Assembly (NCBI RefSeq): GCF_053078305.1
Contig: NZ_CP166879.1
Direction: 5' to 3' (one strand)
DNA: 64,000 bases
Below the pieces are notes generated by a model that saw nothing but the letters and a program-made list of their open reading frames with translations, did no database searches and had not been told where the DNA came from. Both the position numbers and the translations under genes were made by a program. Below are positions 16,259 to 61,700 of the stretch, piece by piece. How positions within the stretch are numbered: the stretch's first letter is position 1; each line of letters opens with the position of its first letter.

Positions 16259-16259
16259 T

Positions 16260-20583: not shown

Positions 20584-20726
20584 GAAATACTACTCCTTCA
20601 GACTCTGTTAAGTTTTGTTTGTTAAATCGGTGCAGACCTGCAGGAAAGCACGCAAGCACCGGCACAGTACGATATAAACATCCGGTACCGGGGATACGAA
20701 TGGAATGACGAATACGCCAGAAAAGG

Positions 20727-22081
20727 GATAACAACCTTCCTCAGAATGGTGAAATCATTCGCTATGGCGAAGTTATCGGTTACGCGGTACGCGATGTCGC
20801 CAAAGGCAGCTGGATCGACGAATCCACGGTCACGCTGCCGAAAGCGCCGCCGCTGGAAGATTACACCTTTGAAGGTTACCGCAACGCCGACGGCAGCGTG
20901 GGCACCAAAAACCTGTTGGGTATTACCACCAGCGTGCACTGCATGGCAGACGTTGTGAACTACGTGGTTAAAATTATCGAACGCAACCTGCTGCCGAAAT
21001 ACCCGAGCATCGACGGAGTGGTCGACTTGAACCACCTCTACGGCTGTGGCGTAGCGATTAATGCACCGACCGCCGTGGTGCCAATTCACACCATCCATAA
21101 TATTGCGCTGAACCCAAACTTCGGTGGCGAAGTGATGGTGGTGGGTCTCGGTTGCGAAAAGCTACAGCCATAGCGCCTGCAGAAAGGTACGGAAGATGTG
21201 CAGAGCATCCCGGTCGACAGAGCCAGCATCGTACGCCTACAGGACGAACAGCACGTTGGCTTTAAATCAATGGTCGACGATATCCTGCAGGTTGCCGCAC
21301 ACCATCTGGAAAAACTCAACCAGGCCAGCGCGTCACCTGCCCGGCCTCCGAGCTGGTGGTGGGCATGCACTGCGGTGGCAGCGACGCGTTCTCCGGCGTT
21401 ACCGCTAACCCCGCTGTCGGCTACGCCTCTGACCTGCTGGTGCGCTGCGGCGCAACGGTGATGTTCTCCGAAGTCACTGATGTACACGACGCCATTCATC
21501 TGTTAACGCCGCTCGCCATCAATGAAGAAGTTGGCAGGTGTCTGCTCGAAGAGATGGCCTGATACGATAACTATCCCGATATGGGCAAAACCGACCGCAG
21601 CGCCAACCCTTCGCCGGGCAACAAAAAGGGCGGCCTCGCCAACGTGGTAAAGAAGGCACTCGGCTCCATTGCTAAATCGGGTAAAACCGCAATTGTTGAA
21701 GTGCTGTCGCCCGGTCAACACCCGACTAAACGCGGATTAATTTACGCCGCGACGCCAGCCAGCGATTTTATCTGTGGCACGCAACAGGTGGCTTCGGGTA
21801 TCACCGTGCAAGTGTTTACGACCGGCCGTGGTACGCCGTACGGCCTGATGGCGGTACCCGTCATTAAAATGGCGACCCGCACCGGGCAGGCGAACCGCTG
21901 GTTTGATTTAATGGATATTAACGCGGGCACTATCGCTACCGGCGAAGAGACTATTGAAGAGGTGGGCTGGAAGTTGTTCCACTTTATTCTCGACGTCGCC
22001 AGCGGGAAGAAGAAAACCTTCTCGGATCAATGGGGATTGCATAACCAGCTGGCAGTGTTTAACCCGGCACCGGTGGTCTGA
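20727..22081 (+). pseudogene. garD: galactarate dehydratase pseudogene (N-terminally truncated, in-frame stop, frameshifts)
   Basis: Successive frames translate to GarD/UxaA-type sequence: [15 protein letters not shown]..., [23 protein letters not shown]..., [35 protein letters not shown]..., [23 protein letters not shown]...AVFNPAPV. There is a stop after CEKLQP (21171-21173) and at least two frame changes. The left boundary is approximate. Confidence 0.85.
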
Positions 22082-22143
22082 TATTCTCTTCATACATCAA
22101 GTTGTATTATGCCCGATAACGCTTGTTTATCGGGCATAGTGAA

Positions 22144-22715
22144 TCACAGCGAAGACGCGAGCTCCCCGACCAGTATCACTTCAACCCCAGCCTTTCGCAG
22201 GCCTTCCAGACTATCCGCAGGAATGCCTTCATCAACAATGATCATGTCGATACGTTGAGTATCAATGATCTTATGTAAACTGGAACGATTGAACTTACTG
22301 GAATCGGTGACCACGATGATCCGTTCCGCAACTTCGCACATCCGACGGTTTAAACGGGCTTCATCTTCATTATGCGTGCTGATGCCGCACTCCAGATCGA
22401 TCGCATCTACACCAAGAAACAGCATATCGAAGTGGTAATTTTGCAGCGATTGCTCAGCCTGATCACCGTAAAAAGATTGCGACTGACGGTGTCAGTGCTA
22501 TCGCAGATCAACGCGCCACCATAGGCACACACAGCGATCCCCTGCTTTTCCAGAAACGCCAGATCGTTGCGGATCGTCACAGTAGATACGCCATACAATG
22601 CCGACAGATCGTTAACCTGCACACTCCCTTGCTGTCGCAGACGCTGAATGATCTGTTCTCGTCGCTCGCTGGTGCCTGTCACTCGCTTCTCACCTGAAGC
22701 GTCGGTATTACTCAT
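22144..22715 (-). pseudogene. agaR: DeoR-type aga operon repressor pseudogene (internal deletion plus frameshift)
   Basis: The N-terminal ORF ([62 protein letters not shown]...) and the C-terminal ORF (...[54 protein letters not shown]...VILVGE) are in different frames. The sugar-binding middle (~110 codons) is missing. Confidence 0.85.
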
Positions 22716-22963
22716 AGTAAGTCCTTTCGTAAAACTTTCGTTTCATTTCGTTTTGCCTATTAACGCCTTTCTATTAAGCAAATGCAAGCCCACACTGCCC
22801 ATTGGCGCAAGCTACTCTCGTTTCAGTGACTTTCATTATGTTTCTTTTGTGAATCAGATCAGAAAACCCGTACCTTTCGTTTTGTTTTTATCTCACCATG
22901 ATGCAGTATCAACTGAAACAAAACGAAAGATTAATATCGCAGTAATCGGAACTGGAGAGGAAA

Positions 22964-23587
22964 GTGAAACATCTGACAGAAATGGTGAGGCAGCACAAAG
23001 CGGGCAAAACAAATGGGATTTATGCCGTTTGTTCCGCACATCCGCTGGTGCTGGAAGCTGCAATCCGCTACGCCAGTGCAAACCAAACGCCGTTACTGAT
23101 TGAAGCAACCTCCAATCAGGTGGACCAGTTCAGCGGTTATACCGGAATGACGCCCGCCGATTTTCGCAGCTTTGTTTGTCAGCTCGCCGACTCGTTGAAT
23201 TTCCCGCAGGATGCGCTGATGCTGGGTGGTGATCATCTGCGACCAAAATCGCTGGTCGATAGCGAAACGCTTATCGTGGTGTACATCTCCAGCCACCCTT
23301 ACACGCGCCAGTACGACCTGGGTCTGCTGACAGAACTGCGCCACGATCGTCAGGCAATGCGCGTGATCGCAATTGCGGTGGAAACGGATGCCATCATCGA
23401 AGCGGGCCCGCATATCCTGTTGCCTCCTTCCCGTTCGTTTATCGACATGGAACAGGCGTTCTGCTTCCTGATGTACGCCCAGGTCTTTGTGCTGGCTCAG
23501 TCGATTCATGTTGGCAATACGCCAGATCTCCCCTCTGCCAGCGGCACGGTTAACCGTGTGGTGCAAGGTGTGATTATTCATCCATAG
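22964..23587 (+). pseudogene. deletion fusion of the kbaZ 5' end to the agaS 3' end
   Basis: The first ~95 aa match KbaZ/AgaZ ([56 protein letters not shown]...LGGDHL). The rest matches the AgaS C-terminus (...[26 protein letters not shown]...[24 protein letters not shown]). This implies loss of agaV-agaA. Confidence 0.75.
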
Positions 23588-23596
23588 CGGGCTTAA

Positions 23597-23926
<330 letters not shown>

Positions 23927-24010
23927 TGCGCATAGCGTGCAGGTGATCATCGGAGCGCAGGTACAGAGCGTCAAAACCGGCATTGAAGCCTTAATTTAAC
24001 AGGAGGAGTG

Positions 24011-25174
24011 ATGTTTGATTTCGACAAAATCATTGAGCGTCAAAGTGATAAGTGCCGTAAATGGGACCATGCCTTTGTTTGCTCGCGTTTCGGTGACGTC
24101 CCGGAGTCCTTCATCCCCCTGTGGATAGCCGATATGGATTTCACCTCACCGCCTGCGGTGATTGACGGTTTCCGGCGCATCGTGGAGCACGGCACCTTTG
24201 GTTATACTTGGTGCTTTGACGAATTCTACGACGCAGTCATCGCCTTCCAGCGCAAACGTCATCAGGTTGAGGTGGAAAAATCGTGGATCACGTTGACCTA
24301 CGGCACGGTATCCACGCTGCACTACACGATTCAGGCGTACTGCAAACCGGGTGACAGCGTGATGATGAACACGCCGGTCTACGATCCTTTTGCGATGGCG
24401 GCACAGCGCCAGGGCGTGCAGGTACTGGCTAACCCGCTGCGCGTGGAGGGAAACCGCTACCAGCTTGATTTTAATCTGATAGAAGAACAGCTCAAAACCT
24501 ACCGTCCAACGCTGTGGTTCTTCTGCTCGCCGCATAACCCGTCCGGCAGGATCTGGCGCGAGGAAGAAATACGCCAGGTGTCCGATCTCTGTCAACGCTA
24601 CGGCACGATTCTGGTGGTCGATGAGGTTCACGCTGAACACATTCTGGATGGCAAATTCGTCAGTTGTCTCACCTCTGGCTGTGCCGCCCAGGACAACCTG
24701 ATCGTGCTCACATCGCCCAACAAAGCGTTAAAGCTGGGCGGGCTGAAAACCTCCAACTCCATGATTCCAGACGACTCGCTGCGCCAGCGCTTCCGCCAGC
24801 AGCTTGAGAAGAACTCCATTACCTCGCCCAATTTGTTCGGGGTATGGGGAATCATTCTGGCCTATCAACACGGTCTGCCCTGGCTCGACGCGCTGAACGG
24901 TTATCTGCAAGGCAACGCCCGGTATCTGGCGGATGCCCTCCAGACCCACTTCCCGGCGTGGAAGATGATGACCCCGGAATCGTCGTATCTGGCGTGGATA
25001 GACGTAAGCGCGGATGAGAGTAGCGCAACGCAGCTAACCCAACATTTCGCACGGCAGGCAGGCGTGGTCATAGAAGACGGCAGCCACTATGTACAAAACG
25101 GTGAAAACTACCTACAGATTAATTTTGGCTCTCAGCGCTACTGGCTGGAGCGATCCACCAACCGAATGCAGTAA
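24011..25174 (+). CDS. MalY/PatB-type PLP-dependent C-S lyase (cystathionine beta-lyase family)
   Basis: ATG 24011 follows AGGAGG. 387 aa fold-type I aminotransferase pattern (IPLWIADMDF, FCSPHNPSGRIW, TSPNKALKLGG). Preceded at 23922-23999 by the last ~25 codons of a PtsG/MalX-type EIICB gene (...VQVIIGAQVQSVKTGIEALI*). Confidence 0.75.
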   Translation: MFDFDKIIERQSDKCRKWDHAFVCSRFGDVPESFIPLWIADMDFTSPPAVIDGFRRIVEHGTFGYTWCFDEFYDAVIAFQRKRHQVEVEKSWITLTYGTVSTLHYTIQAYCKPGDSVMMNTPVYDPFAMAAQRQGVQVLANPLRVEGNRYQLDFNLIEEQLKTYRPTLWFFCSPHNPSGRIWREEEIRQVSDLCQRYGTILVVDEVHAEHILDGKFVSCLTSGCAAQDNLIVLTSPNKALKLGGLKTSNSMIPDDSLRQRFRQQLEKNSITSPNLFGVWGIILAYQHGLPWLDALNGYLQGNARYLADALQTHFPAWKMMTPESSYLAWIDVSADESSATQLTQHFARQAGVVIEDGSHYVQNGENYLQINFGSQRYWLERSTNRMQ

Positions 25175-25199
25175 CATTACAGATAAGGATCTTACACCA

Positions 25200-27089
25200 A
25201 TGAAGAAAGTGCTCACTCTCTCACTACTGGCTCTGTGTGTGTCTCATAGTGCAGTAGCAGCAAACTATACGTTCAATAACGATAATATTGCCCTCTCGTT
25301 TGATGATACAAACTCGACGATTGTGCTGAAGGACCGTAGAACTAACCATCCGATCACACCACAGGAATTGTTCTTTCTGACACTACCGGATGAGACAAAA
25401 ATCCACACCGCAGATTTCAAAATCAAGCACATCAAAAAACAGGACAATGCGATTGTCATCGACTTTACGCGCCCAGATTTTAACGTAACAGTGCAGTTGA
25501 ACCTTGTGAAGGGAAAATATGCCAGCATCGACTACACTATTGCCGCCGTTGGGCAACCACGAGACGTTGCCAAGATTACCTTCTTCCCGACCAAAAAACA
25601 GTTTCAGGCTCCTTACGTAGACGGCGCAATCACTAGCTCACCGATCATTGCGGACTCGTTCTTTATCCTGCCGAATAAACCGATCGTGAATACCTACGCC
25701 TATGAAGCAACAACCAATCTCAACGTAGAACTGAAAACTCCAATTCAGCCAGAAACGCCGGTTAGCTTTACCACCTGGTTCGGTACTTTCCCGGAAACCA
25801 GCCAGTTGCGACGCAGTGTGAACCAGTTTATTAATGCCGTACGTCCACGTCCGTACAAGCCTTATTTGCATTACAACAGTTGGATGGATATCGGCTTTTT
25901 CACTCCGTACACCGAACAGGATGTTCTGGGACGCATGGACGAATGGAACAAGGAATTCATTAGCGGCCGCGGAGTGGCGTTAGACGCTTTTCTGCTGGAC
26001 GATGGCTGGGACGATCTTACCGGACGCTGGTTATTTGGCCCGGCATTCAGCAACGGTTTTAGCAAAGTACGAGAGAAAGCCGATAGCCTGCACAGCTCCG
26101 TTGGGCTATGGCTTTCACCGTGGGGGGGTTACAATAAGCCGCGCGACGTTCGCGTTTCGCATGCAAAAGAGTATGGGTTCGAAACCGTGGACGGCAAGCT
26201 GGCGCTGTCGGGAGCGAACTACTTTAAAAACTTCAATGAGCAGATCATTAATCTTATCAAAAATGAACACATTACCTCGTTTAAACTCGACGGAATGGGG
26301 AACGCCAGTTCACATATAAAGGGTAGCCCGTTCGCCTCGGATTTTGATGCGTCAATAGCTCTGCTGCACAATATGCGCAGAGCAAACCCGGATCTATTTA
26401 TTAACCTGACCACCGGCACCAACGCCAGCCCGTCCTGGTTGTTCTATGCTGATTCTATCTGGCGTCAGGGGGATGATATAAACCTGTATGGCCCCGGCAC
26501 GCCGGTGCAGCAGTGGATAACATACCGTGATGCCGAGACATACCGCTCTATTGTACGTAAAGGCCCGCTGTTCCCGCTGAACTCGCTGATGTACCACGGG
26601 ATAGTCAGCGCCGAGAATGCCTATTACGGGTTAGAGAAGGTGCAAACGGACAGCGACTTTGCCGATCAGGTCTGGAGCTACTTCGCGACCGGCACCCAGC
26701 TGCAGGAGCTGTATATTACCCCGTCCATGCTGAACAAGGTGAAGTGGGATACGCTGGCGAAGGCTGCAAAATGGTCGAAGGAAAATGCCAGCGTGCTGGT
26801 TGATACCCACTGGATTGGCGGCGACCCAACGGCGCTTGCCGTGTACGGCTGGGCATCCTGGAGCAAAGACAAAGCCATTCTCGGTTTGCGCAACCCATCG
26901 GATAAGCCACAGACCTACTATCTGGATTTGGCGAAGGATTTCGAAATACCGGCAGGAAACGCGGCGCAGTTTAGTCTGAAAGCGGTATACGGCAGCAATA
27001 AAACCGTGCCCGTTGAGTATAAAAACGCGACGGTGATTACGTTGCAGCCGCTGGAAACGCTGGTGTTTGAGGCGGTGCCCATTAACTAA
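25200..27089 (+). CDS. secreted glycoside hydrolase, melibiase/alpha-galactosidase-like TIM-barrel
   Basis: ATG 25200 with AAGGA RBS; the track start 25089 overlaps the lyase gene. Signal peptide MKKVLTLSLLALCVSHSAVAA. Motifs HYNSWMDIGFF, LLDDGWDD and SFKLDGMG are typical of the GH27/36-like clan. The family call is tentative. Confidence 0.6.
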   Translation: MKKVLTLSLLALCVSHSAVAANYTFNNDNIALSFDDTNSTIVLKDRRTNHPITPQELFFLTLPDETKIHTADFKIKHIKKQDNAIVIDFTRPDFNVTVQLNLVKGKYASIDYTIAAVGQPRDVAKITFFPTKKQFQAPYVDGAITSSPIIADSFFILPNKPIVNTYAYEATTNLNVELKTPIQPETPVSFTTWFGTFPETSQLRRSVNQFINAVRPRPYKPYLHYNSWMDIGFFTPYTEQDVLGRMDEWNKEFISGRGVALDAFLLDDGWDDLTGRWLFGPAFSNGFSKVREKADSLHSSVGLWLSPWGGYNKPRDVRVSHAKEYGFETVDGKLALSGANYFKNFNEQIINLIKNEHITSFKLDGMGNASSHIKGSPFASDFDASIALLHNMRRANPDLFINLTTGTNASPSWLFYADSIWRQGDDINLYGPGTPVQQWITYRDAETYRSIVRKGPLFPLNSLMYHGIVSAENAYYGLEKVQTDSDFADQVWSYFATGTQLQELYITPSMLNKVKWDTLAKAAKWSKENASVLVDTHWIGGDPTALAVYGWASWSKDKAILGLRNPSDKPQTYYLDLAKDFEIPAGNAAQFSLKAVYGSNKTVPVEYKNATVITLQPLETLVFEAVPIN

Positions 27090-44240: not shown

Positions 44241-44272
44241 GATACAACGACTGTCTGAATATCGTGGGTCAA

Positions 44273-46276
44273 GGACAGTTTTTTCCTGCGTGTAAATCAA
44301 TAAATGCTGTTGTATCACCGAACAGAATATTTGAACTGTCTGACTGAATGTCACCTTTTACATCTGCGTTGCGACCGACAGAAAAGTCACTATTTTCAAG
44401 ATATAATGTACCGAATCTGAAAGTGCCATTTTCCCAGTCTGGCTGAGATAAATCAGATACAGTGTTACTGGTTTTATGGATATTACCACTCTGTCTTGCA
44501 ATATCTGCTTCTGTTTTCTGAATTTCGGCGACATAGTCTCTGCCACATAAGAAGCGTATTGGAGCAGGCAGTGAACAGGAGAAATTTCCATCACGGTAAA
44601 TAGCGTGTTCAGTGGCATGTCCCTGCATGGTCAGTTGTGTATTCCGCAGCCTTATATCATTTTGGATATTTATTTCACCATCGAGAATAAGACGATTATT
44701 TTCCTTTTTGGTCTCATGCTGCTGAATTATCGCCACGTTTCCATTTATTTTTCCATGATAGATATAATTAGTATTATTTTTCAGGAATAATTTTGCTTCT
44801 TTATCTGCTGTGTTTGTTATTACAGCGCCTGAATCAGTTGCAGCAATTTTATTGAAAGACTGGTCGTAACCATTCAGGTCAAGCGTACCTCCATTTCTGG
44901 TGAAGAAAATCCCGTTATACTCACCTTCGGACAGTGCTTTTTCTGCATTCAGTTTTACTGTTCCATTGCCGCCAGCCATATAGATATTATTGAAAGCATT
45001 TGTAGCACTGAGATTTACTGTACCATCCCCTGTTTTTAGATTTCCTCCCTAGGAGACCTTCACATTGAGTGTACCTGCACCTATTTTATGAAGGTTATCG
45101 TTTGTCGTGCCTTTCAGGAACCAGTCAACAGTCGAATTTTCACCAATATCAATACCTGCACCAGTATAGATAATATTATCTCCTGTGACAGTATATTTAT
45201 GTCCTTTATCAAAGACAAGTCCGCCACTACCGAGATTAAGATTACTGGTTATGTTCAGTGTTCCCCCACCATGAATAACATTATCTTTATTATTCGAGAG
45301 GGACGTCTGAGATAATTGATTTCCGTTCAGGATAATATCCTGAGAGTATTTTTTCTTTAAATTGTCAACGGTAGTCTGATTCCAGCGGTTTACTGCCGAA
45401 CGAACATTACCGTTGCCATAAATATATTCATCATAAAGAGTACCAAGCACAACCCATTTTTTCTATATTGTCATACAGCAAAAATGGCGATCCGCTGTCA
45501 CCGGAAGTTGTACGATTTCCAAACTCATCAAAAAGGTTATGTGTCGTAATATGTCCGGACCTCCAGTCATCCACGAGCACAAATGAACCATTCAGTAACT
45601 CAGGGACATATGAGACATCTTTGTAATTTATAGTCTTTCCACTTTTCTGTAGTGCCAGGTAACCAGAACCGGCTCTGAAAGCAATTAATTTCTTCTCTCC
45701 TTTAAAATTAATGCCATATCGTTCAATAGCTTGTTCCTTAGTCAGTGACGTATTTGCTCCGGAAACAATCCCTTTTGTTTCCACAACATATTTATTCAGT
45801 CGTGTGACGGCAAAGTCATTACTCGTGTTCCTGTCAACATACTTATAATTTGTTTGCCCCCATGACTGGGTGGCAATGGCATGATGCGTTATTTGATTAT
45901 GTGTCGCGGTAACACTATAAGCGCCGCCAATGGATGTGGATGCTCCTTTGTTTGATACAGGCGAAAAATCGGGGAATGGTACTTCAGGTAATCTATAAAC
46001 AGAACCATCCTTTTTTATAATAGAAATATTTTCATTACCTGCAGTAAATACGCCTTTATTCTGGGCAAAATCAAGATAATCCCGAATATAAAAATTATCA
46101 ATCCACATGTGCGATGCCATTGAGCTTGTAGCAAACAGCATTCCAGCAGGAACCACGATAACAGGTGCCAGTCTGATCTTTTTTCCTGATGCAGTAGTAA
46201 CTCTTTTGGTCAATTCAGAAACGGCAACCAGCCCCCCGGTGATTGCACTGAACTTTAGAGAATAAATTTTGTTCAT
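44273..46276 (-). pseudogene. serine protease autotransporter (SPATE) pseudogene: N-terminal ~650 codons, frameshifted, truncated by the IS2-like element
   Basis: MNKIYSLKFSAITGGLVAVSELTKRV extended signal peptide and S6 peptidase with GDSGSPFLLYD (ORF 45431-46276). It continues in two other frames (45049-45450; 44269-44979 with LTMQGHATEHAIYRDG). The beta-barrel translocator is absent. Confidence 0.85.
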
Positions 46277-49171: not shown

Positions 49172-50263
49172 TCAGGATTTTTTCTGCCCGCCAGGAGTAT
49201 GAACATCTTCCGCCGTTGAGTCTGTCATATCCATTTTTTTCTGTGCCAGTACTTCATCTGATTTTTCTTTTTCCAGACTCTCCTGCTGCATCCCGTGAGC
49301 CGGAGCATATACAAGCTCAGCCATCACTGGAAAATGATCTGAACCCATATCCGGTAAACGGCGTAAACTTTTAAGCAGAAAATGCTGGCTGTGAAATACA
49401 TGGTCAAGCGGCCATCGCAGGAAAAAATAATGGCTGTGAAACGTGCTAAAAAAACCACGTCCCCGGCGTGGATTCAGCAGTCCACTTATTTTCATGAATA
49501 AACGAGTGGTCGCAGACCACGCAACATCATTCAGATCCCCCGCTAATATTACAGGTAATTCAGAATCTGCAACACTTTTCCCGACCATTAAAAGTTCTGA
49601 GTCACGATCAGTTGACTCATCACTTTCAGTCGGGCTCGGTGGAACAGGATGAAAACAATGTAATCTTATTCTCTGACCTTCCGGCATATGAACTATCATA
49701 TGCATGGAGGGAATTTCCTTGTCCACTAAATACTGTATTTCTGCATCACTTAAAATCATCCTTGAATATACATGCATGCCATATAAATTTTCTTTCGGGC
49801 ATTTCAGGGAGTATGGAAACACTTCATCCAGAGGTGATAGTTTCTGTTCCCACCATAAGTTTGTTTCAAGAAGAACAAGTATATCAGGTTTTTCTTTATT
49901 TATAAGTTCAAGCAAAGGCATATATTTTTTATTGGTCATAAGGACATTGAATACCAGTATACTTAAACCCGGAAATCCATCAGAGTCCTTTATTTCCTTT
50001 ACCTGCTTCTTGCCAATTACTGTATAAGGAATTATCCATACCAACTGGTAAGCGACACAAATTAAACTTATTATCACAACAAACAACTCTGCAAATGAGT
50101 CAAGAAAAACAACAGACAGAAAAACATTCAAAGTACACAGCAAAAGTATCTGTAGTCGGGGAAAATCCCATACCCTGACAACCCATGATGTATTACCGGA
50201 AACAGGGATAAAAGTTATGACTGCCAGAAGGATAGCAGTAAAAATAAAAACACAAGTTATCAC
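49172..50263 (-). CDS. membrane-anchored endonuclease/exonuclease/phosphatase (EEP) family protein
   Basis: 363 aa. Three N-terminal TM helices, then EEP-fold blocks (ILVFNVLMTN, DILVLLETN, ILAGDLNDVAWS, GSDHFPV). Confidence 0.75.
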   Translation of the reverse strand: MITCVFIFTAILLAVITFIPVSGNTSWVVRVWDFPRLQILLLCTLNVFLSVVFLDSFAELFVVIISLICVAYQLVWIIPYTVIGKKQVKEIKDSDGFPGLSILVFNVLMTNKKYMPLLELINKEKPDILVLLETNLWWEQKLSPLDEVFPYSLKCPKENLYGMHVYSRMILSDAEIQYLVDKEIPSMHMIVHMPEGQRIRLHCFHPVPPSPTESDESTDRDSELLMVGKSVADSELPVILAGDLNDVAWSATTRLFMKISGLLNPRRGRGFFSTFHSHYFFLRWPLDHVFHSQHFLLKSLRRLPDMGSDHFPVMAELVYAPAHGMQQESLEKEKSDEVLAQKKMDMTDSTAEDVHTPGGQKKS

Positions 50264-50788: not shown

Positions 50789-51304
50789 TCACAACCTCCC
50801 TTTTCTGACCAGAAGCATCCCCTTGTACAACAACTCAACTTCATTATGTACCCGTAACCTCTTTATCAGATTCTGCTTATGAGTGGAGAATGTTTTCTCT
50901 GACATGCCAAGATATCGTGCCCCCTCTGTTCCGTTACTGCCATAAAGCAGCATCATCAGTACATTTACCTGCCGGCCTGACAGGGTCAGCTTCTCCACCG
51001 ACATGAATGCGCGGTACAGATGACTGATATCGTTTACTGAACATCGCTCAGTAAGATGTCTGATATCATAAACCGGACTGTCAACCACTCCCCAGAGAAA
51101 ACGGAGCGCTTCCGGAGAAGAAAAATAAAGGGTGTTCGTATCACTTATATTATTCTTATACAGAAAGCCGACAATTTCAGATATCCGGGAAGAAGATATT
51201 ATCACCACATTATCTGTCTGCATGCCGCTGATAATGAATTTACCGGGATTAATATACTCCTTCACTCCCTCCAGAAAATAACTGTTATCACAAATAAAAC
51301 GCAT
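50789..51304 (-). CDS. LuxR/GerE-type HTH transcriptional regulator
   Basis: 171 aa; C-terminal LSGRQVNVLMMLLYGSNGTEGARYLGMSEKTFSTHKQNLIKRLRV. No receiver-domain phospho-acceptor pattern noticed. Confidence 0.75.
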   Translation of the reverse strand: MRFICDNSYFLEGVKEYINPGKFIISGMQTDNVVIISSSRISEIVGFLYKNNISDTNTLYFSSPEALRFLWGVVDSPVYDIRHLTERCSVNDISHLYRAFMSVEKLTLSGRQVNVLMMLLYGSNGTEGARYLGMSEKTFSTHKQNLIKRLRVHNEVELLYKGMLLVRKGRL

Positions 51305-51427: not shown

Positions 51428-51904
51428 TTACCGGTCTGCGGTGCTGCAGAGATATTTAACACTGACACCTCGCAGACCATTTTTCTCCATCGCATTGTAA
51501 AGATGCGCACATACCGTCTTCATGCTTATCCCCAGCTGGTCTGCCAGAAAGGTACAGCCGTACTCATGGAAAATAACCCCGAAGACCACCACCATCTCGG
51601 TACGGGTCAGTGGTCTTGCCGTATGTCCGAACAACCACGCACCACGACGGATGGCCTGCCTGATATCTGTCAGGCATCTCACAGAGGAAACAGGAATGAC
51701 AAGAAAACGACGCCCACAGAACATACAGTATGTAAGCCTTTCCAGATTACGGTCACAGAGAATCACATAACTGTCTTCGGGAAGTGGCAGACGGCGCTTT
51801 CCGGCATCAAACAGTTCACGGCCTGTCGTGAGCCTGTATCCGTTCAGCATACGCATCAGGCCATATTCCAGATATCTGTCACGGGTCATAATAATAATCT
51901 GCAT
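51428..51904 (-). CDS. LuxR/GerE-type HTH transcriptional regulator (second)
   Basis: 158 aa; C-terminal LTRTEMVVVFGVIFHEYGCTFLADQLGISMKTVCAHLYNAMEKNGL. Confidence 0.7.
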   Translation of the reverse strand: MQIIIMTRDRYLEYGLMRMLNGYRLTTGRELFDAGKRRLPLPEDSYVILCDRNLERLTYCMFCGRRFLVIPVSSVRCLTDIRQAIRRGAWLFGHTARPLTRTEMVVVFGVIFHEYGCTFLADQLGISMKTVCAHLYNAMEKNGLRGVSVKYLCSTADR

Positions 51905-51966: not shown

Positions 51967-52179
51967 TCATTCATAACGGAAACTGTCTGCCGCATACATC
52001 AGTGCCCGCTCTTCCAGCTCTGACAGACTCAGCTCTTTCAGTTCCCCTTCTCCTTCAGCAAGAAGACAACATTCAAAAACAGCTGCATCGTCGCATTCCA
52101 GACGAACCTGCACCCTGTCAGCCCGACCGTTTACAGTAAATACCTGCACTGAACTTATGCGATAGTTCAGCATATACAC
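51967..52179 (-). CDS. hypothetical 70-aa acidic protein
   Basis: ORF fills the gap between the TAA gene and the LuxR gene on the same strand. No motif. Confidence 0.35.
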   Translation of the reverse strand: MYMLNYRISSVQVFTVNGRADRVQVRLECDDAAVFECCLLAEGEGELKELSLSELEERALMYAADSFRYE

Positions 52180-52300: not shown

Positions 52301-53503
52301 TCAGAACTCCCAGTTGACACCCACATTCCAGGAAACATCACCGTCACTGAACGCAGTACCTGCCTTTGCCGCAGCCTGTTCGTTAAAGCGATATCCCATG
52401 CCCACCGCAACAGCCTGCTTGTCACTGTACCCGCCCACTGCCGCTGTGGCGTTAAATTTACCCACACTGTATGGCTGGAAAAGACCGGCCAGCGCTGCTG
52501 ACTGGGCTGCTGCCCGCTTCATTTCCTCATGATTCTCATTAATCTGACGCTGCTGACTGTTCATACGACGCTCATGCGCCTGCAGGGTACGTGCCTGAGA
52601 AGCAATGGCGCGACTGTTGCGTTCACCCACCTGACGGTTACGGCTTACCGCAGCACGGTTTTCTGTGGCCATTTCCTGTGTACGTACCAGCCCTTCCTGT
52701 ACAGTAATTCGTTCACCGGTTCCCTCACCGCGCGTCACATAACCATGACTGTCCACAGCAACGGTACTTCCGGTATTTATCTGCTGTTGCTGGCTGTTCA
52801 GGCGCTCTTCATGCGTCTCCAGCACGTCTCTCTGGGAAAGCAGCCCCCTGGTGTTACGGTTTATGGCCACCGTGTTCCGGATAATATTCTCCCTGTTCTC
52901 TGCAGCAACCGTATCGGTATGGTCACGCGCCTTAAGTGCTTCCGCTGCAATCCGTCCACTGACGTCACTGTACACCTCATCCGCCTTCCGGTTCAGTTGC
53001 CCGACAGTGGCTGCATCCGTATCCCGTGTACCATCACTGACACCACCGAGAACCCGGGTTTTATCCGGTACACGCGGACTGGCCGGGTTTGTGACACCTG
53101 AGTCATATCCGATGTAGACTTCATTTTCACGGGTTGTACCGGACTGCTGACCAAGAGCCACTGAATACCTGTGCATTGCCTGTGCACCCGTACCCAGTGC
53201 TACTGAATTTAAAGCATCTGCAGATGCCCAGCTACCTACTGCCACACCATTAGACGCCTCCGGATTTACATAAGCAGACATCCCCACGGATGTGGAAAAC
53301 GGCGCATGCGCATACGATGCAGAGCCAAGAGCTGTCCCTGCCTTCCCGGCATTCGCCCATGCCCCCACTGCCGTGGAGTCAGTCTCTGATGCAGAGGCTG
53401 TGTCCGGAGACGCCCAGGAACTGCCATCCTGCGCAAACGCCGGAGCACCGGCAATCAGAAAGGAAATAAGCGATAAAGTAATACCGTGTCGATTTATTTT
53501 CAT
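52301..53503 (-). CDS. trimeric autotransporter adhesin (YadA/Eib-like)
   Basis: ATG 53503 (GAGG RBS). Signal peptide [24 protein letters not shown], head repeats (SVALG, AVGxxA), a coiled-coil stalk, and a YadA anchor ...[42 protein letters not shown]...WNVGVNWEF. Confidence 0.85.
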
Positions 53504-53769: not shown

Positions 53770-55638
53770 TCAGACAATATAAACAGAATTGTGATTTATA
53801 TCCTCAAGCGCTGTATTAACGAAATATATCTGTCCTCCTGCAATACCTGCCTCAACATCATTTCCGGTTTGTTTCAGACATGAAATAAACTCATCTGTCG
53901 ATGTAACAATACCCTTTGATAAAAACAGAAAATCTTTTTCACCCTTATGTTTATTAAAATCCATGATAAATGAATTCCCTTCACAAGCAGCATCAAAGAC
54001 GAAGACATCATGACCAGTACCACCATACAGATAATCATTACCTCCCCCACCATATAACCAGTCGTTACCTTCTGCTCCGTACAACTCATCATTACCAGAA
54101 GCCCCATGAAGATAATCATTCCCGCGACCTCCGTGTAAAAGACTTACTCCTTCTCCCCCGGCACTATGTAATATATCATTTCCGTCAAGACCAAAAATAA
54201 TATTTCCGAACAGACTATCATCTCCGTTTGTACCTTCTGTATGTTTTCCGTAATCAACATTTTTATTACGCCACTTCAGAAGATACCTGTGGTCTGTAAT
54301 CTGCTCTTCTTCTATCTGATAAGGGCTTAGTTTACTCCTCCAGTCACCAGAAAAAGAGATACCTTCAATACCTGTTGCCTCAGTCAGACCGGCTCCCCGT
54401 TCTGAATGGAAAAACAGCGTCCCATCACTGACCCTGTATATATTCCAGTCATCCATTACATCGCTAAGAAGCAGCGTGTCATACCCACTGCCACCATCAA
54501 CCCTGTTTGCTCCCTTACCTGGTTCAATCTTATCATTCCCTCCCCCTCCCTCTATATAGTCGCCACCCTTCCCGCCTGCCAGCAGATTATTGCCATCATT
54601 ACCGATGATGAATACAGGTCTTTCACGACTCTCATCCCCCTTGTCATGAACCCATGAATACCAGGATGTCCAGCTACTTTGCTCATCCACAATGACTGTA
54701 CTGTCCGGTGACATGTAGTCGTAAAACTGAGCCCCTAAAATTCTTTCAAAGGCGTCAGTTTTTAAACCCGCAAAATGCGCACTCCAGCTTCCCAGCGGGA
54801 GTGCAAGCACAGAAAAGGGGATAATATTCCAGAGGAATGAACCATAAAGGTCTGTGTATAAAACAATGTTATCAGGAGAAGAGTCATATTCACGATCCGG
54901 GGTTGTCAAGCCCGGCCCCATTGCTTTAACTGCCTCCCAGAACCCGGCTCCATCTCCCAGCACACGAAATACCGGATCGTTTTCAAAACCGATATTTAAT
55001 ACCTTCCCATCCCCGTCAAATACCAGCGGGGAAGCCCAGGCTATATAGTCAGAATTAGCATAAAAACCATCAGCCAGAGACTCACTGAGTCTGGCCATAA
55101 TGTTAGTCAACCCGCCCCCCAGGCTATAGCCTGTGACAATAACATATTCACCACTTAAACCATTACTGACTGCAAAGTCTCTGATACTTTGAAGCAGGTT
55201 TTCTGCTTCAGACAGCGCTTTTCCATTATTGAGCTGTGTATAATCAACAATATCGCAGATATCATTTGTTCCACAGAATGATATTGCAATTTTCTGTAGA
55301 TTCTGTTGAGCATCAAACAACCCAACAACTTTCAACTGAGGACCAAATCCTGGCGCAGGGTTTCCTGTAACCGGACTGGGAAAGCGATAAAAACCTCTTG
55401 AATCGACATATTCCGAAGATAACCTGAGTTCTTCCACTGTAATATCACGCCAGCCTTCATTAAGAACATCGGTAGAATAATCAATCCTATCTGGGTGCTT
55501 TGCAAATAGCCTGGATACCAGAAAACTTCCTAATCCAAGAACCTTTCCAGTGTTGGAATATATAGCAAGATTATAAGAAGAAGAAACAAGTTCTGCTACA
55601 TGTGCAAAAGAATAAGATTTATAATTAAACACCCCCAT
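53770..55638 (-). CDS. family I.3-type lipase/esterase with C-terminal RTX repeats (T1SS substrate)
   Basis: ATG 55638 (AGGAGA RBS). MGVFNYKSY..., nucleophile elbow GYSLGG, LNIGFENDPVFRVL and LWNIIPFS parallel Pseudomonas/Serratia I.3 lipases. RTX nonapeptides GGKGGDYIEGGGGNDKI and GGRGNDYLHGASGNDELYGAEGNDWLYGGGGNDYLYGGTGHD. Confidence 0.8.
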   Translation of the reverse strand: MGVFNYKSYSFAHVAELVSSSYNLAIYSNTGKVLGLGSFLVSRLFAKHPDRIDYSTDVLNEGWRDITVEELRLSSEYVDSRGFYRFPSPVTGNPAPGFGPQLKVVGLFDAQQNLQKIAISFCGTNDICDIVDYTQLNNGKALSEAENLLQSIRDFAVSNGLSGEYVIVTGYSLGGGLTNIMARLSESLADGFYANSDYIAWASPLVFDGDGKVLNIGFENDPVFRVLGDGAGFWEAVKAMGPGLTTPDREYDSSPDNIVLYTDLYGSFLWNIIPFSVLALPLGSWSAHFAGLKTDAFERILGAQFYDYMSPDSTVIVDEQSSWTSWYSWVHDKGDESRERPVFIIGNDGNNLLAGGKGGDYIEGGGGNDKIEPGKGANRVDGGSGYDTLLLSDVMDDWNIYRVSDGTLFFHSERGAGLTEATGIEGISFSGDWRSKLSPYQIEEEQITDHRYLLKWRNKNVDYGKHTEGTNGDDSLFGNIIFGLDGNDILHSAGGEGVSLLHGGRGNDYLHGASGNDELYGAEGNDWLYGGGGNDYLYGGTGHDVFVFDAACEGNSFIMDFNKHKGEKDFLFLSKGIVTSTDEFISCLKQTGNDVEAGIAGGQIYFVNTALEDINHNSVYIV

Positions 55639-55797
55639 AAAATCTCCTCTGAATTCATTTAAATATCCTTCATTTATCCAAGAAGAAACAAAAAGCATTA
55701 TTCTCAGATAAATTTTTTCAGTAAAAGAGCATACCTGGAGTAGAACTTACAACGAAAAAGATCCCCCCACAGCAACGACTGTGAGGGGATACTATTG

Positions 55798-58700
55798 TTA
55801 CACTACATTAGTGATTCTCTCATCAATCAGAACCTGTACATCAGGAACCGAAGCATGTGTATAAATGTTATAAGTGATATCCCCTTCAGACTCAGTGCTT
55901 CCTTTAATCCAGTTATACCCATTGTCACTGAGGTTATCCCCGTTATTACCGAGGTCAACCCGAGAACTACCATCACCTGTGACTTTGAGTTTATTACCCT
56001 CTATAGAGGCAGAATTTAAATTCTCAGCCAACAAATTCAGTGCAGCTCCATCTTTCAGTTCAATCTTCTCAAAACCAGAGAATGTGTTGCTTGTGGCATT
56101 ACCCTGATGAATAACCAAGGTATCAAATCCAGAACCACCTTTAATATTTGAAGCATTATCAATATTAGCCACAATATCGATTACATCATTACCAGCACCT
56201 AAATCCAAGGTTGATGATTTGAGCGCAGCAAGAGAATTACCTCCTAACAATAACAGGCTGTCATTTCCATCTTCCATAGTAACAGTCGTTTTCTCTATAA
56301 AACCACCATTATTTGGGTATCCCGAATCATTATCAGGTATTATGATATCTCCATCCAGTCGTTGATACTTAGCGGTTTCTTCAATGCGGTAAGAACCATC
56401 CTTCCCATATACGACATCATAACCGCCTCGACCAAAACCAACTATCAGGATATCATCACCGATACCTGTATTTACCTCGGTCCATAGATCACTATATCCA
56501 ATCCCCAAATCACGACCAGTCACGATGGTATCGTCACCTGCACCAGTATCGACAACCATTGGTCTTACCCAGCGAGAAACGCCCAGATTCCCCAGTGACA
56601 GTTCAGTCGTAATTATATTATCCCCCTCTGTCATTTCCAGTAGAGCGACGTTATTAGCACCATTCTTACTTATTACATAAACATTTGTCCCTACATTTGC
56701 CTCATGAGCCTTAATGGCCAAGAATGATTTAGAATCTTTTTGTAAATCATCATCAGCGATTTTGACCTTTTGACCTGAGCCAGCTGTAACTCCATGACCT
56801 TGCGTCATGTTTACATTACCTGTATAGATAACGGTTCCAATCCGATCTATTGCATCCGGCTTGCCGTTGCCGTTTTCATCCACTGCCGGTACATCGATAC
56901 CGTCAACTTTAGCCAGACGCCCGTTCAGACCGTCCTTCGCATCTCCGGCCGGCAGACCTTCCACCGCTTTCGCCGCATCTGCTTTCGCCGCCGTTACCGC
57001 ATCGTTCTTCGCCGCAAGATCATCATGCTCCTGCTGGGTGATCTTATTGTCAGCCTTCGCCTGAGTCAGCGCCGCTTCTGCTTCTTTTTCCTTCGCTTCC
57101 GCTTCTGCTACCTTGGCTGTCGCTGCATTCACCGCCTCTGCTGCTTCCTCTGCATCCGGCTTGCCGTTGCCGTTTTCATCCACTGCCGGTACATCGATAC
57201 CGTCAACTTTAGCCAGACGCCCGTTCAGACCGTCCTTCGCATCTCCGGCCGGCAGACCTTCCACCGCTTTCGCCGCATCTGCTTTCGCCGCCGTTACCGC
57301 ATCGTTCTTCGCCGCAAGATCATCATGCTCCTGCTGGGTGATCTTATTGTCAGCCTTCGCCTGAGTCAGCGCCGCTTCTGCTTCTTTTTCCTTCGCTTCC
57401 GCTTCTGCTACCTTGGCTGTCGCTGCATTCACCGCCTCTGCTGCTTCCTCTGCATCCGGCTTGCCGTTGCCGTTTTCATCCACTGCCGGTACATCGATAC
57501 CGTCAACTTTAGCCAGACGCCCGTTCAGACCGTCCTTCGCATCTCCGGCCGGCAGACCTTCCACCGCTTTCGCCGCATCTGCTTTCGCCGCCGTTACCGC
57601 ATCGTTCTTCGCCGCAAGATCATCATGCTCCTGCTGGGTGATCTTATTGTCAGCCTTCGCCTGAGTCAGCGCCGCTTCTGCTTCTTTTTCCTTCGCTTCC
57701 GCTTCTGCTACCTTGGCTGTCGCTGCATTCACCGCCTCTGCTGCTTCCTCTGCATCCGGCTTGCCGTTGCCGTTTTCATCCACTGCCGGTACATCGATAC
57801 CGTCAACTTTAGCCAGACGCCCGTTCAGACCGTCCTTCGCATCTCCGGCCGGCAGACCTTCCACCGCTTTCGCCGCATCTGCTTTCGCCGCCGTTACCGC
57901 ATCGTTCTTCGCCGCAAGATCATCATGCTCCTGCTGGGTGATCTTATTGTCAGCCTTCGCCTGAGTCAGCGCCGCTTCTGCTTCTTTTTCCTTCGCTTCC
58001 GCTTCTGCTACCTTGGCTGTCGCTGCATTCACCGCCTCTGCTGCTTCCTCTGCATCCGGCTTGCCGTTGCCGTTTTCATCCACTGCCGGTACATCGATAC
58101 CGTCAACTTTAGCCAGACGCCCGTTCAGACCGTCCTTCGCATCTCCGGCCGGCAGACCTTCCACCGCTTTCGCCGCATCTGCTTTCGCCGCCGTTACCGC
58201 ATCGTTCTTCGCCGCAAGATCATCATGCTCCTGCTGGGTGATCTTATTGTCAGCCTTCGCCTGAGTCAGCGCCGCTTCTGCTTCTTTTTCCTTCGCTTCC
58301 GCTTCTGCTACCTTGGCTGTCGCTGCATTCACCGCCTCTGCTGCTTCCTCTGCATCCGGCTTGCCGTTGCCGTTTTCATCCACTGCCGGTACATCGATAC
58401 CGTCAACTTTAGCCAGACGCCCGTTCAGACCGTCCTTCGCATCTCCGGCCGGCAGACCTTCCACCGCTTTCGCCGCATCTGCTTTCGCCGCCGTTACCGC
58501 ATCGTTCTTCGCCGCAAGATCATCATGCTCCTGCTGGGTGATCTTATTGTCAGCCTTCGCCTGAGTCAGCGCCGCTTCTGCTTCTTTTTCCTTCGCTTCC
58601 GCTTCTGCTACCTTGGCTGTCGCTGCATTCACCGCCTCTGCTGCTTCCTCTGCATCCGGCTTGCCGTTGCCGTTTTCATCCACTGCCGGTACATCGATAC

Positions 58701-61700
58701 CGTCAACTTTAGCCAGACGCCCGTTCAGACCGTCCTTCGCATCTCCGGCCGGCAGACCTTCCACCGCTTTCGCCGCATCTGCTTTCGCCGCCGTTACCGC
58801 ATCGTTCTTCGCCGCAAGATCATCATGCTCCTGCTGGGTGATCTTATTGTCAGCCTTCGCCTGAGTCAGCGCCGCTTCTGCTTCTTTTTCCTTCGCTTCC
58901 GCTTCTGCTACCTTGGCTGTCGCTGCATTCACCGCCTCTGCTGCTTCCTCTGCATCCGGCTTGCCGTTGCCGTTTTCATCCACTGCCGGTACATCGATAC
59001 CGTCAACTTTAGCCAGACGCCCGTTCAGACCGTCCTTCGCATCTCCGGCCGGCAGACCTTCCACCGCTTTCGCCGCATCTGCTTTCGCCGCCGTTACCGC
59101 ATCGTTCTTCGCCGCAAGATCATCATGCTCCTGCTGGGTGATCTTATTGTCAGCCTTCGCCTGAGTCAGCGCCGCTTCTGCTTCTTTTTCCTTCGCTTCC
59201 GCTTCTGCTACCTTGGCTGTCGCTGCATTCACCGCCTCTGCTGCTTCCTCTGCATCCGGCTTGCCGTTGCCGTTTTCATCCACTGCCGGTACATCGATAC
59301 CGTCAACTTTAGCCAGACGCCCGTTCAGACCGTCCTTCGCATCTCCGGCCGGCAGACCTTCCACCGCTTTCGCCGCATCTGCTTTCGCCGCCGTTACCGC
59401 ATCGTTCTTCGCCGCAAGATCATCATGCTCCTGCTGGGTGATCTTATTGTCAGCCTTCGCCTGAGTCAGCGCCGCTTCTGCTTCTTTTTCCTTCGCTTCC
59501 GCTTCTGCTACCTTGGCTGTCGCTGCATTCACCGCCTCTGCTGCTTCCTCTGCATCCGGCTTGCCGTTGCCGTTTTCATCCACTGCCGGTACATCGATAC
59601 CGTCAACTTTAGCCAGACGCCCGTTCAGACCGTCCTTCGCATCTCCGGCCGGCAGACCTTCCACCGCTTTCGCCGCATCTGCTTTCGCCGCCGTTACCGC
59701 ATCGTTCTTCGCCGCAAGATCATCATGCTCCTGCTGGGTGATCTTATTGTCAGCCTTCGCCTGAGTCAGCGCCGCTTCTGCTTCTTTTTCCTTCGCTTCC
59801 GCTTCTGCTACCTTGGCTGTCGCTGCATTCACCGCCTCTGCTGCTTCCTCTGCATCCGGCTTGCCGTTGCCGTTTTCATCCACTGCCGGTACATCGATAC
59901 CGTCAACTTTAGCCAGACGCCCGTTCAGACCGTCCTTCGCATCTCCGGCCGGCAGACCTTCCACCGCTTTCGCCGCATCTGCTTTCGCCGCCGTTACCGC
60001 ATCGTTCTTCGCCGCAAGATCATCATGCTCCTGCTGGGTGATCTTATTGTCAGCCTTCGCCTGAGTCAGCGCCGCTTCTGCTTCTTTTTCCTTCGCTTCC
60101 GCTTCTGCTACCTTGGCTGTCGCTGCATTCACCGCCTCTGCTGCTTCCTCTGCATCCGGCTTGCCGTTGCCGTTTTCATCCACTGCCGGTACATCGATAC
60201 CGTCAACTTTAGCCAGACGCCCGTTCAGACCGTCCTTCGCATCTCCGGCCGGCAGACCTTCCACCGCTTTCGCCGCATCTGCTTTCGCCGCCGTTACCGC
60301 ATCGTTCTTCGCCGCAAGATCATCATGCTCCTGCTGGGTGATCTTATTGTCAGCCTTCGCCTGAGTCAGCGCCGCTTCTGCTTCTTTTTCCTTCGCTTCC
60401 GCTTCTGCTACCTTGGCTGTCGCTGCATTCACCGCCTCTGCTGCTTCCTCTGCATCCGGCTTGCCGTTGCCGTTTTCATCCACTGCCGGTACATCGATAC
60501 CGTCAACTTTAGCCAGACGCCCGTTCAGACCGTCCTTCGCATCTCCGGCCGGCAGACCTTCCACCGCTTTCGCCGCATCTGCTTTCGCCGCCGTTACCGC
60601 ATCGTTCTTCGCCGCAAGATCATCATGCTCCTGCTGGGTGATCTTATTGTCAGCCTTCGCCTGAGTCAGCGCCGCTTCTGCTTCTTTTTCCTTCGCTTCC
60701 GCTTCTGCTACCTTGGCTGTCGCTGCATTCACCGCCTCTGCTGCTTCCTCTGCATCCGGCTTGCCGTTGCCGTTTTCATCCACTGCCGGTACATCGATAC
60801 CGTCAACTTTAGCCAGACGCCCGTTCAGACCGTCCTTCGCATCTCCGGCCGGCAGACCTTCCACCGCTTTCGCCGCATCTGCTTTCGCCGCCGTTACCGC
60901 ATCGTTCTTCGCCGCAAGATCATCATGCTCCTGCTGGGTGATCTTATTGTCAGCCTTCGCCTGAGTCAGCGCCGCTTCTGCTTCTTTTTCCTTCGCTTCC
61001 GCTTCTGCTACCTTGGCTGTCGCTGCATTCACCGCCTCTGCTGCTTCCTCTGCATCCGGCTTGCCGTTGCCGTTTTCATCCACTGCCGGTACATCGATAC
61101 CGTCAACTTTAGCCAGACGCCCGTTCAGACCGTCCTTCGCATCTCCGGCCGGCAGACCTTCCACCGCTTTCGCCGCATCTGCTTTCGCCGCCGTTACCGC
61201 ATCGTTCTTCGCCGCAAGATCATCATGCTCCTGCTGGGTGATCTTATTGTCAGCCTTCGCCTGAGTCAGCGCCGCTTCTGCTTCTTTTTCCTTCGCTTCC
61301 GCTTCTGCTACCTTGGCTGTCGCTGCATTCACCGCCTCTGCTGCTTCCTCTGCATCCGGCTTGCCGTTGCCGTTTTCATCCACTGCCGGTACATCGATAC
61401 CGTCAACTTTAGCCAGACGCCCGTTCAGACCGTCCTTCGCATCTCCGGCCGGCAGACCTTCCACCGCTTTCGCCGCATCTGCTTTCGCCGCCGTTACCGC
61501 ATCGTTCTTCGCCGCAAGATCATCATGCTCCTGCTGGGTGATCTTATTGTCAGCCTTCGCCTGAGTCAGCGCCGCTTCTGCTTCTTTTTCCTTCGCTTCC
61601 GCTTCTGCTACCTTGGCTGTCGCTGCATTCACCGCCTCTGCTGCTTCCTCTGCATCCGGCTTGCCGTTGCCGTTTTCATCCACTGCCGGTACATCGATAC

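Follow-up and report, generated by a model that had tools for sequence, protein, structure and literature searches.

What is a lipase-like gene doing inside the adhesin locus of an Escherichia coli genome? The question arises from a 64,000-nt stretch of contig NZ_CP166879.1 (RefSeq assembly GCF_053078305.1; hereafter the window), in which a sequence-only reading had placed an RTX lipase of family I.3 next to a giant adhesin and its type I secretion system (T1SS). We asked whether the gene encodes such an enzyme, to which known system the surrounding genes belong and whether the two have anything to do with each other. By alignment and predicted fold, the gene is a full-length, divergent homologue of the family I.3 RTX lipases, and it sits in a variant of the tos operon, which is known from uropathogenic E. 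coli (UPEC). We consider it fairly probable that the gene encodes a serine hydrolase of the I.3 superfamily that is intact, is kept by selection and is most likely exported by the adjacent TosCBD-type T1SS.

A full-length, divergent homologue of family I.3 lipases

The proposed boundaries of the gene, 53770–55638, hold, with the gene on the minus strand. The open reading frame (ORF) has 622 codons and a GC content of 42.6%; it starts with MGVFNYK and encodes a protein of 67.8 kDa with a pI of 4.5. An in-frame ATG at 55698, 20 codons upstream, would lengthen it. However, the sequence shows a Shine–Dalgarno (SD) motif, AGAGGAG, at 55644–55650 on the minus strand, 5 nt upstream of the ATG at 55638, and the homologous gene measures 1869 nt in all RefSeq and other assemblies examined. 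We therefore take 55638 to be the real start and 55698 to be an unlikely one. All motifs that the sequence-only reading had quoted (GYSLGG, LNIGFENDPVFR, LWNIIPFS and the GGxGxD repeats) were found in the translation, and the N terminus, MGVFNYKSYSFAHVAELV, is collinear with the MGVYDYKNF of PML, the lipase of Pseudomonas sp. MIS38.

Searching all PDB chains with phmmer returned PML (2z8x, E=4e-64) and LipA of Serratia marcescens (2qua, E=3e-60); the other matches covered the RTX region only. An AlphaFold2 (AF2) model built on an alignment of 48 homologues reached a mean predicted local distance difference test score (pLDDT) of 87.7 and a predicted template modelling score (pTM) of 0.88. When this model was submitted to Foldseek, PML and LipA were the sole full-length matches among solved structures (TM 0.66–0.68, E ~1e-38), with 27–30% identity in the structural alignment.

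The N-terminal half, approximately residues 1–340 (54619–55638, minus strand), forms the α/β-hydrolase catalytic domain in the alignment to PML. There, Ser172 (GYSLGG), Asp221 (ENDPVF) and His288 (SWSAHF) align with Ser207, Asp255 and His313 of PML. The sequence-only reading had made its case depend on the catalytic Asp and His; both are present, and the three residues are invariant across the 48 homologues, which span 32–97% identity and share just 22 invariant columns.

The C-terminal domain (residues 341–622; 53770–54618, minus strand), delimited by Pfam, repeat counts, the AF2 model and alignment, comprises two RTX β-roll blocks and a hydrophobic tail. Six strict GGxGxD units fall into the two blocks, residues 355–388 and 503–545, and the RTX region is modelled as a ladder of β-strands with pLDDT >90. 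The last 80 aa align with PML and with all relatives and finish on the hydrophobic NSVYIV. This tail resembles the region that directs I.3 lipases to their T1SS and is a putative secretion signal, and the protein sequence is consistent with the absence of an N-terminal signal peptide and the presence of an uncleaved C-terminal T1SS signal. The proposed collinearity with the T1SS-secreted lipases of family I.3 is thus borne out by phmmer, Foldseek, the triad and the RTX blocks.

Standard annotation recovers little of this. The only part of the protein that Pfam recognised was HemolysinCabind (E=1.1e-19); it gave no domain for the catalytic half, on which Lipase_3 reached only E=0.24. The best NCBIfam profile, and the best curated profile, was that of the PueA/PueB polyurethane esterases (PueAB, NF050046; E=1.4e-99, residues 1–511), with a score of 334.2 bits that is half of the 670-bit cut-off, and the protein is thus not a PueAB equivalog. 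The missed cut-off and the lack of a Pfam catalytic domain explain why RefSeq and GenBank label it 'hypothetical protein'; one record names it, wrongly, 'hemolysin E'.

Compared with PML, LipA and TliA of P. fluorescens, the protein has the same two-domain plan (617/615 aa versus 622 aa here), the triad in the same motifs (GxSLGG, ENDPVF and xSH) and two RTX β-roll blocks; it, too, has no evident signal peptide at its N terminus and finishes on a hydrophobic tail. Besides the low identity, differences concern the lids and the cysteines. The lids of PML comprise residues 46–74 and 146–167; here, the lid1 region is approximately 25 aa shorter (residues 29–49 correspond to PML 29–74) and the lid2 region approximately 9 aa shorter, and lid1 was modelled at low confidence (low pLDDT at residues 31–60). 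Gln101, which aligns with PML Gln120, and Asp129 and Asp132 of the lid2 region are conserved, and we take their counterparts in PML to be Ca-site ligands; in PML, the Ca1 site keeps lid2 open. Unlike the classical I.3 lipases, the protein contains four Cys. The absence of Cys entered the original classification of family I.3 as a descriptive trait, not a mechanistic one, and we therefore treat the four Cys as a difference from the family rather than as grounds for exclusion.

A variant of the tos operon

The sequence-only reading had put the lipase within an adhesin T1SS locus of an Escherichia-like genome. The placement was correct, as tos-type genes surround the lipase and the first 25 kb of the window are 98.5% identical to many E. 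coli chromosomes. The adhesin system itself can be named: judged by its gene order and protein identities, it is an allele or variant of the characterised tosRCBDAEF operon of UPEC strain CFT073, which encodes the T1SS-exported RTX adhesin TosA and of which tosE and tosF have been described as part (PMC5956150).

Upstream of the lipase lies a gene for a TosA-type giant T1SS adhesin of 2357 aa (55798–62871, minus strand), assigned from its ORF, Pfam and comparison with TosA. Identity to TosA amounts to 86% across the N-terminal 128 aa and to 32% across 139 aa of the C-terminal region (E=6e-9), and the body consists of approximately 18 identical 100-aa GA-like repeats. The gene order and the adhesin ends match the CFT073 operon, whereas the GA-like repeats replace the adhesin body. 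Further upstream, the 3' part of a gene for an HlyD-family adaptor, the TosD orthologue (97% amino acid identity), occupies 63156–64000 on the minus strand, its frame open to the end of the window.

The genes for the TolC-like protein and the ATP-binding cassette (ABC) protein lie beyond the window and were read from sister loci. A 1.76-Mb contig of GCA_000736735.1 that encodes an identical lipase contains the full HlyD-family gene (415 aa, 97.8% identical to TosD), preceded by a gene for a 715-aa ABC protein. In the four loci whose flank reaches these genes, the identities to CFT073 were 83–92% for TosC, 92–95% for TosB and 96–98% for TosD.

Downstream of the lipase, all on the minus strand, follow a gene for a YadA-like trimeric autotransporter adhesin of approximately 400 aa (52301–53503; Pfam YadA_anchor, YadA_head and YadA_stalk), annotated at 400 aa in homologous loci; a small ORF of 68–70 aa (51967–52179), conserved in loci L001, L002, L012 and L093 and without a match in Pfam; and two LuxR-family regulator genes, one TosE-like (51428–51904; 37% identity to TosE, E=2e-40) and one TosF-like (50789–51304; 42% to TosF, E=2e-43), a pair in which we found the GerE domain. 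The YadA-like adhesin relies on type Vc secretion and does not need the T1SS. Compared with CFT073, the lipase gene, the YadA-like gene and the small ORF are three inserted genes that separate the adhesin gene from the tosE-like one.

The place of tosR, the gene for a PapB-family regulator, lies beyond the window. A TosR homologue (65%) was found only in the plasmid locus L003 (p113Kb, 2292–2573), where it precedes the T1SS genes; the chromosomal loci L001, L002, L010 and L012 have insertion sequence (IS) fragments upstream of the T1SS, and no TosR homologue was found there. Plasmid p113Kb carries a second PapB-family gene at 25141–25374.

In strain SCU-171, the TolC-family gene of the lipase-bearing locus has subAB approximately 1.5 kb upstream. 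An 'OEP-locus' comprising hypothetical outer membrane efflux protein (OEP)/T1SS genes has been described beside subAB2-2 in food-borne E. coli that produce Shiga toxin (STEC) and that lack LEE, the enterocyte effacement locus, in a paper whose text does not contain the word 'lipase' (Funk et al. 2013, PMC3852854). Given the distance of approximately 1.5 kb to subAB in SCU-171, the tos-type T1SS discussed here is apparently this OEP-locus. An identification of the island with PAI I-CL3/LAA was dropped, as a review gives ShlA/ShlB-type two-partner secretion genes and pagC for that island.

Just downstream of the tosF-like gene, a 363-aa protein of the endonuclease/exonuclease/phosphatase family is encoded at 49172–50263 on the minus strand. 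It is conserved both in the GCA_000736735.1 contig and in the lipase-free locus of strain Z1323MEC0001 and could be another secreted enzyme.

Distribution, selection and mosaicism

Of 5426 complete E. coli genomes, 51 carry the lipase gene, in 28 chromosomal and 24 plasmid copies. It is thus no part of the E. coli core genome, in line with what the sequence-only reading had supposed. DNA of the tosD type occurs in 313 of the same genomes, which makes the lipase an accessory to roughly one in six tos-type loci. The chromosomal copies are on genomic islands, and many of the strains, which come from humans, food and animals, bear names of the STEC type. The plasmid copies are from isolates of cattle faeces, urine, cerebrospinal fluid and other human sources; these plasmids are large, and the one examined is of the IncF type. 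A protein identical to that of the window is encoded in GCA_000736735.1, the named members of its cluster are all E. coli, and the 90% cluster holds 1484 member sequences.

Approximately 45 of 52 lipase records consist of one full-length coding sequence (CDS). We compared five E. coli alleles, taken from the window, from FHI_NMBU_10 and SCU-171, from plasmid p113Kb and from a lineage of 72% identity, and each has an intact frame of 622 codons. Among close alleles, dN/dS (Nei–Gojobori) was 0.26–0.47, and against the distant 72% allele it was 0.04–0.09, indicating purifying selection. As dN/dS is below 1 and yet an IS3 element disrupts some copies, the lipase gene is maintained but dispensable.

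The locus is a mosaic. GC content falls from 58% across the adhesin repeats to 43% for the lipase gene and returns to 55% for the YadA-like gene, and recombination breakpoints map to lipase codons 18–20 and approximately 180 nt before the stop codon (positions 55578–55638 and 53770–53950). Alleles of 99% identity match from lipase nt 55–61 onwards, with 13 of 19 amino acid differences in residues 3–28, and the plasmid alleles diverge in the last approximately 180 nt, the part that encodes the putative secretion signal. The slot after the adhesin also varies, and CFT073 holds nothing there. These comparisons show the tos operon as a modular scaffold with a variable adhesin body and a downstream slot that is empty or holds the lipase or extra YadA-like genes. 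In Z1323MEC0001, whose scaffold is 99% identical, the slot contains a 580-aa YadA-like gene (locus L012, 15616–17358), and the adhesin gene encodes a 'beta strand repeat' protein of 2616 aa rather than one of the GA-like type.

Relatives outside E. coli

The nearest proteins outside E. coli are approximately 47% identical to the lipase, and a scan of one genome per species gave 471 relatives. When a tree was built by neighbour joining, the alleles from E. coli grouped at 100% bootstrap and were joined, with 85% support, by sequences from Morganella, Paralysiella, Simonsiella, other Neisseriaceae, Muribacter and Moraxella. This group stood apart from the Halomonas, Psychrobacter, alphaproteobacterial and sampled Pseudomonas sequences. 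The term 'Pseudomonas/Serratia-type', which the sequence-only reading had applied, is therefore apt at the level of the whole family only; it overstates the closeness, with approximately 30% identity, 334 rather than 670 bits for PueAB and a separate clade.

The betaproteobacterium Paralysiella testudinis carries genes for an OEP, an ABC protein (61% identical to TosB), a membrane fusion protein (MFP; 66% to TosD), an OmpA protein and a giant adhesin, followed by a lipase gene (47%). The N- and C-terminal modules of this adhesin are homologous to those of the E. coli adhesin. In the P. testudinis sequence CP069798.1 (locus L004, 1–4631), the giant Big_6 adhesin is called as 200-aa ORFs with a 605-nt period and one frame break per repeat, and the breaks are probably a systematic assembly error. 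In Psychrobacter lutiphocae, the lipase gene is present as two tandem paralogous copies (locus L037, ~10001–13900).

Probable export through the neighbouring secretion system

Synteny makes the lipase a plausible second cargo of the adjacent tos-type T1SS. The lipase gene lies just downstream of the giant adhesin gene on the same strand, as had been noted, the adhesin stop codon (55798) and the lipase start being 159 nt apart rather than the 160 nt first given. In six of six E. coli lipase loci examined, covering three allelic lineages of 72–100% identity on chromosomes and plasmids, the lipase gene directly follows a tos-type adhesin gene, and tos-type T1SS genes are found upstream wherever the flank reaches. 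The order T1SS–adhesin–lipase in P. testudinis likewise supports sharing of the T1SS.

The spacer between the two genes bears on their co-transcription. Directly after the adhesin stop codon, a terminator scan detected a strong terminator-like hairpin with a T-run (55761–55790, minus strand; 13 pairs), for which RNA folding gave −25.2 kcal/mol (z=−5.3). A GC-rich hairpin with a T-run stands right after the adhesin stop codon in every tos-type locus examined, including L003 (~17959–17979), L010 (~9863–9886) and L013 (20821–20843), and a similar one follows tosA in the tosA–tosE spacer of CFT073; tosE and tosF, which lie beyond it, nevertheless count as operon genes (PMC5956150), a point in favour of read-through. 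The hairpin is kept while its sequence is unrelated from lineage to lineage, suggesting a conserved attenuator or mRNA-stabilising function rather than shared sequence ancestry. Between hairpin and lipase start, a consensus scan picked out weak sigma-70 promoter-like hexamers (TTTACT-17-AATAAT; 55697–55725, minus strand) with 9 of 12 consensus matches, a quality no commoner here than in shuffled sequence. This stretch is missing from the plasmid and FHI_NMBU_10 alleles, in which adhesin stop and lipase start are 58 nt apart; as hairpin and SD motif fill this spacer, no room for a promoter is left.

An adhesin and a lipase sharing one T1SS had been called unusual. In principle it is not, as multi-cargo lipase T1SSs are established: LipBCD of Serratia handles LipA and PrtA as well as SlaA, an S-layer protein, and in P. 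fluorescens lipase and protease genes are clustered with one ABC exporter (PMC3034196). In Serratia LipBCD and P. fluorescens AprDEF/TliDEF, one ABC exporter serves an RTX lipase together with other RTX proteins, including a surface-layer protein. There, the lipase shares a short-class ABC protein with proteases or the S-layer protein, whereas here its partner would be a giant adhesin that may stay attached to the cell surface, and the ABC protein has HlyB/LapB length. With multi-cargo lipase T1SSs already known, the arrangement is a variant that introduces no new principle; if the T1SS is shared, the giant-adhesin partner and the ABC class would be new.

From the conserved synteny and the protein features we infer co-transcription, secretion, use of the neighbouring T1SS and an ester or lipid substrate; beyond homology and fold, the mechanism draws on established knowledge of family I.3 lipases. 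The lipase gene would probably be transcribed by read-through of the post-adhesin hairpin, to which the weak promoter of its own may add in the window allele. Made without a signal peptide and with no Sec-type N terminus, the protein would have to leave the cell via a T1SS. Its C-terminal region would be recognised by an exporter of the ABC/MFP/TolC type, most likely the TosCBD-type machine encoded upstream (TolC-like protein, 715-aa ABC protein and HlyD-like adaptor), and the same machine would also export the TosA-type giant adhesin of the operon. Exported unfolded, the lipase would fold outside the cell as its RTX blocks bind Ca2+, and the Ser172–Asp221–His288 triad may then hydrolyse ester or lipid substrates. 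Lipase and YadA-like adhesin together would form an accessory module placed between the adhesin and the tosE/tosF-like regulators.

A more far-reaching version would have the tos-type T1SS as a dual-cargo machine in which a single ABC exporter of HlyB length deals with a giant adhesin and with a lipase that is set free, the adhesin–lipase module as a unit that moved horizontally between Enterobacteriaceae and Neisseriaceae, and the lipase as an unannotated secreted colonisation factor, hydrolysing lipids or esters, of LEE-negative STEC and of plasmid-bearing extraintestinal pathogenic E. coli (ExPEC). We advance it tentatively and lean slightly away from it.

Several observations weigh against an active lipase exported by the adjacent T1SS. 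The shortened lid regions and the four Cys make true lipase activity uncertain. A strong terminator-like hairpin separates the lipase from the adhesin. The 715-aa ABC protein is collinear with HlyB and extends at its N terminus by approximately 130 residues beyond the Aquifex ABC chain 5l22 (572 aa), which we take to be a PrtD-type exporter; it is of the HlyB length class, unlike the short class to which the classical lipase exporters TliD and LipB belong. The T1SS proteins beside the lipase are 92–98% identical to those of CFT073, which is lipase-free, and nothing in their sequences points to an adjustment for a further substrate. When 79 species-representative lipase loci with 10-kb flanks were searched by tblastn with TosB, TosC and TosD, a T1SS was found within 10 kb in a single one, that of Halomonas salifodinae, with a short ABC protein of 605 aa; none of the 79 loci had a giant ORF adjacent to the lipase gene. 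In seven other context look-ups, the relatives were orphan genes among housekeeping genes, and the two results together rule out T1SS linkage as a family-wide trait. An IS3 element disrupts the lipase gene in 5 of the 28 chromosomal copies. Searches of the accessible literature returned no paper on this lipase, and no activity or secretion data for it or its close relatives.

Among the alternatives, the one that survives best concerns the substrate. The protein may be a secreted hydrolase other than a triacylglycerol lipase or polyurethanase, for example an esterase for short chains, or a phospholipase that attacks lipids of the host or the mucosa, which we regard as a serious possibility but the lesser one. 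Lids approximately 25 and 9 residues shorter than in PML, the low model confidence of lid1, the missed PueAB cut-off, a clade dominated by bacteria of animal mucosa (Moraxella, Neisseriaceae, Muribacter and Morganella) and faint Pfam 'Phospholipase-like' matches on some relatives all point this way. Set against these are the overall collinearity with true lipases and the retention of Gln101, Asp129 and Asp132, presumably Ca-site residues by comparison with the PML structure; moreover, the sequence holds nothing that specifies a substrate.

A second alternative keeps the hydrolase and changes its exporter: the lipase would be secreted by another T1SS, for example the Ehx/Hly exporter of STEC plasmids or a different ABC protein with TolC, and its position in the tos operon would reflect island mosaicism. 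We consider this unlikely. It would fit the relatives, which are mostly unlinked to any T1SS, and lipA of Serratia, which is also unlinked to one (PMC3034196). It would also agree with the GC mosaic (58/43/55%), the breakpoints at both ends of the lipase gene, the YadA-like gene in the same slot of Z1323MEC0001 and the long HlyB-like class of the adjacent ABC protein. However, the constant position directly after a tos-type adhesin gene in all six E. coli loci, with the T1SS upstream where the flank reaches, and the recurrence of the T1SS–adhesin–lipase order in a betaproteobacterium argue for a link to this exporter, and the 58-nt spacers are too short for independent transcription. Export by the adjacent TosCBD-type T1SS remains the reading that we prefer.

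That the gene is a decaying or non-functional passenger, a pseudo-enzyme intact by chance in this strain, is highly improbable: IS3 insertions or split annotation in several copies, fragmentation of the neighbouring adhesin in many STEC assemblies and the rarity of the gene in E. coli would suit it, but they are opposed by the invariant triad, by dN/dS well below 1 even against the 72% allele, by the single full-length CDS in most records and by the size of the 90% cluster. We also considered an interbacterial toxin, that is, an anti-bacterial lipase effector, and set it aside, as no adjacent immunity-like gene supports it.

Possible significance for STEC and ExPEC

The gene adds an uncharacterised enzyme to a family already known, and its locus adds a variant to an operon already known; neither amounts to a system of a new kind. 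If active and secreted, the protein would be an unrecognised lipase or esterase in LEE-negative STEC and on some ExPEC plasmids, and in one strain its locus adjoins the subtilase cytotoxin genes. Virulence-gene screens miss it because of the RefSeq label 'hypothetical protein'. If our reading of the export route is true, the locus would offer a natural and genetically tractable E. coli case in which a long ABC protein of the HlyB/LapB class transports a small RTX enzyme as well as a giant adhesin, and a system in which to test cargo specificity and translocon occupancy in T1SSs.

Other features of the window

On the plus strand opposite the adhesin repeats (56794–62328), an 1844-aa ORF and several 83-aa ORFs can be read. 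The repeat is a near-perfect 300-nt tandem unit with a GC content of 58% and identical composition in each sliding window, and we therefore regard these antisense ORFs as artefacts.

The left end of the window (1–4310) contains the 3' part of cdiA and a complete cdiB of the ShlB/FhaC family, a contact-dependent inhibition locus that is 98.5% identical to annotated E. coli. According to the annotation of the matching genome, an aryl-polyene-type cluster follows at 4826–19847, with an ApeI dehydratase, ketosynthase/chain-length factor proteins, acyl carrier proteins, a LolA-like protein, an MMPL transporter and a GT2 glycosyltransferase. At ~20000–25000, the annotation of the 98.5%-identical genome gives garD, a DeoR regulator gene and genes resembling those for tagatose/fructose-bisphosphate aldolase, all as frameshifted or partial pseudogenes; the region resembles a locus for sugar acids that has decayed at the edge of the island. 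The window contains no tRNA genes. Between 42229 and 46276 lies a fragmented autotransporter gene of the SPATE type (serine protease autotransporters of Enterobacteriaceae), recognised by its ESPR signal and Peptidase_S6 domain, with pieces at 45431–46276 and 44269–44979 that adjoin transposase genes of the IS110 and IS3 families.

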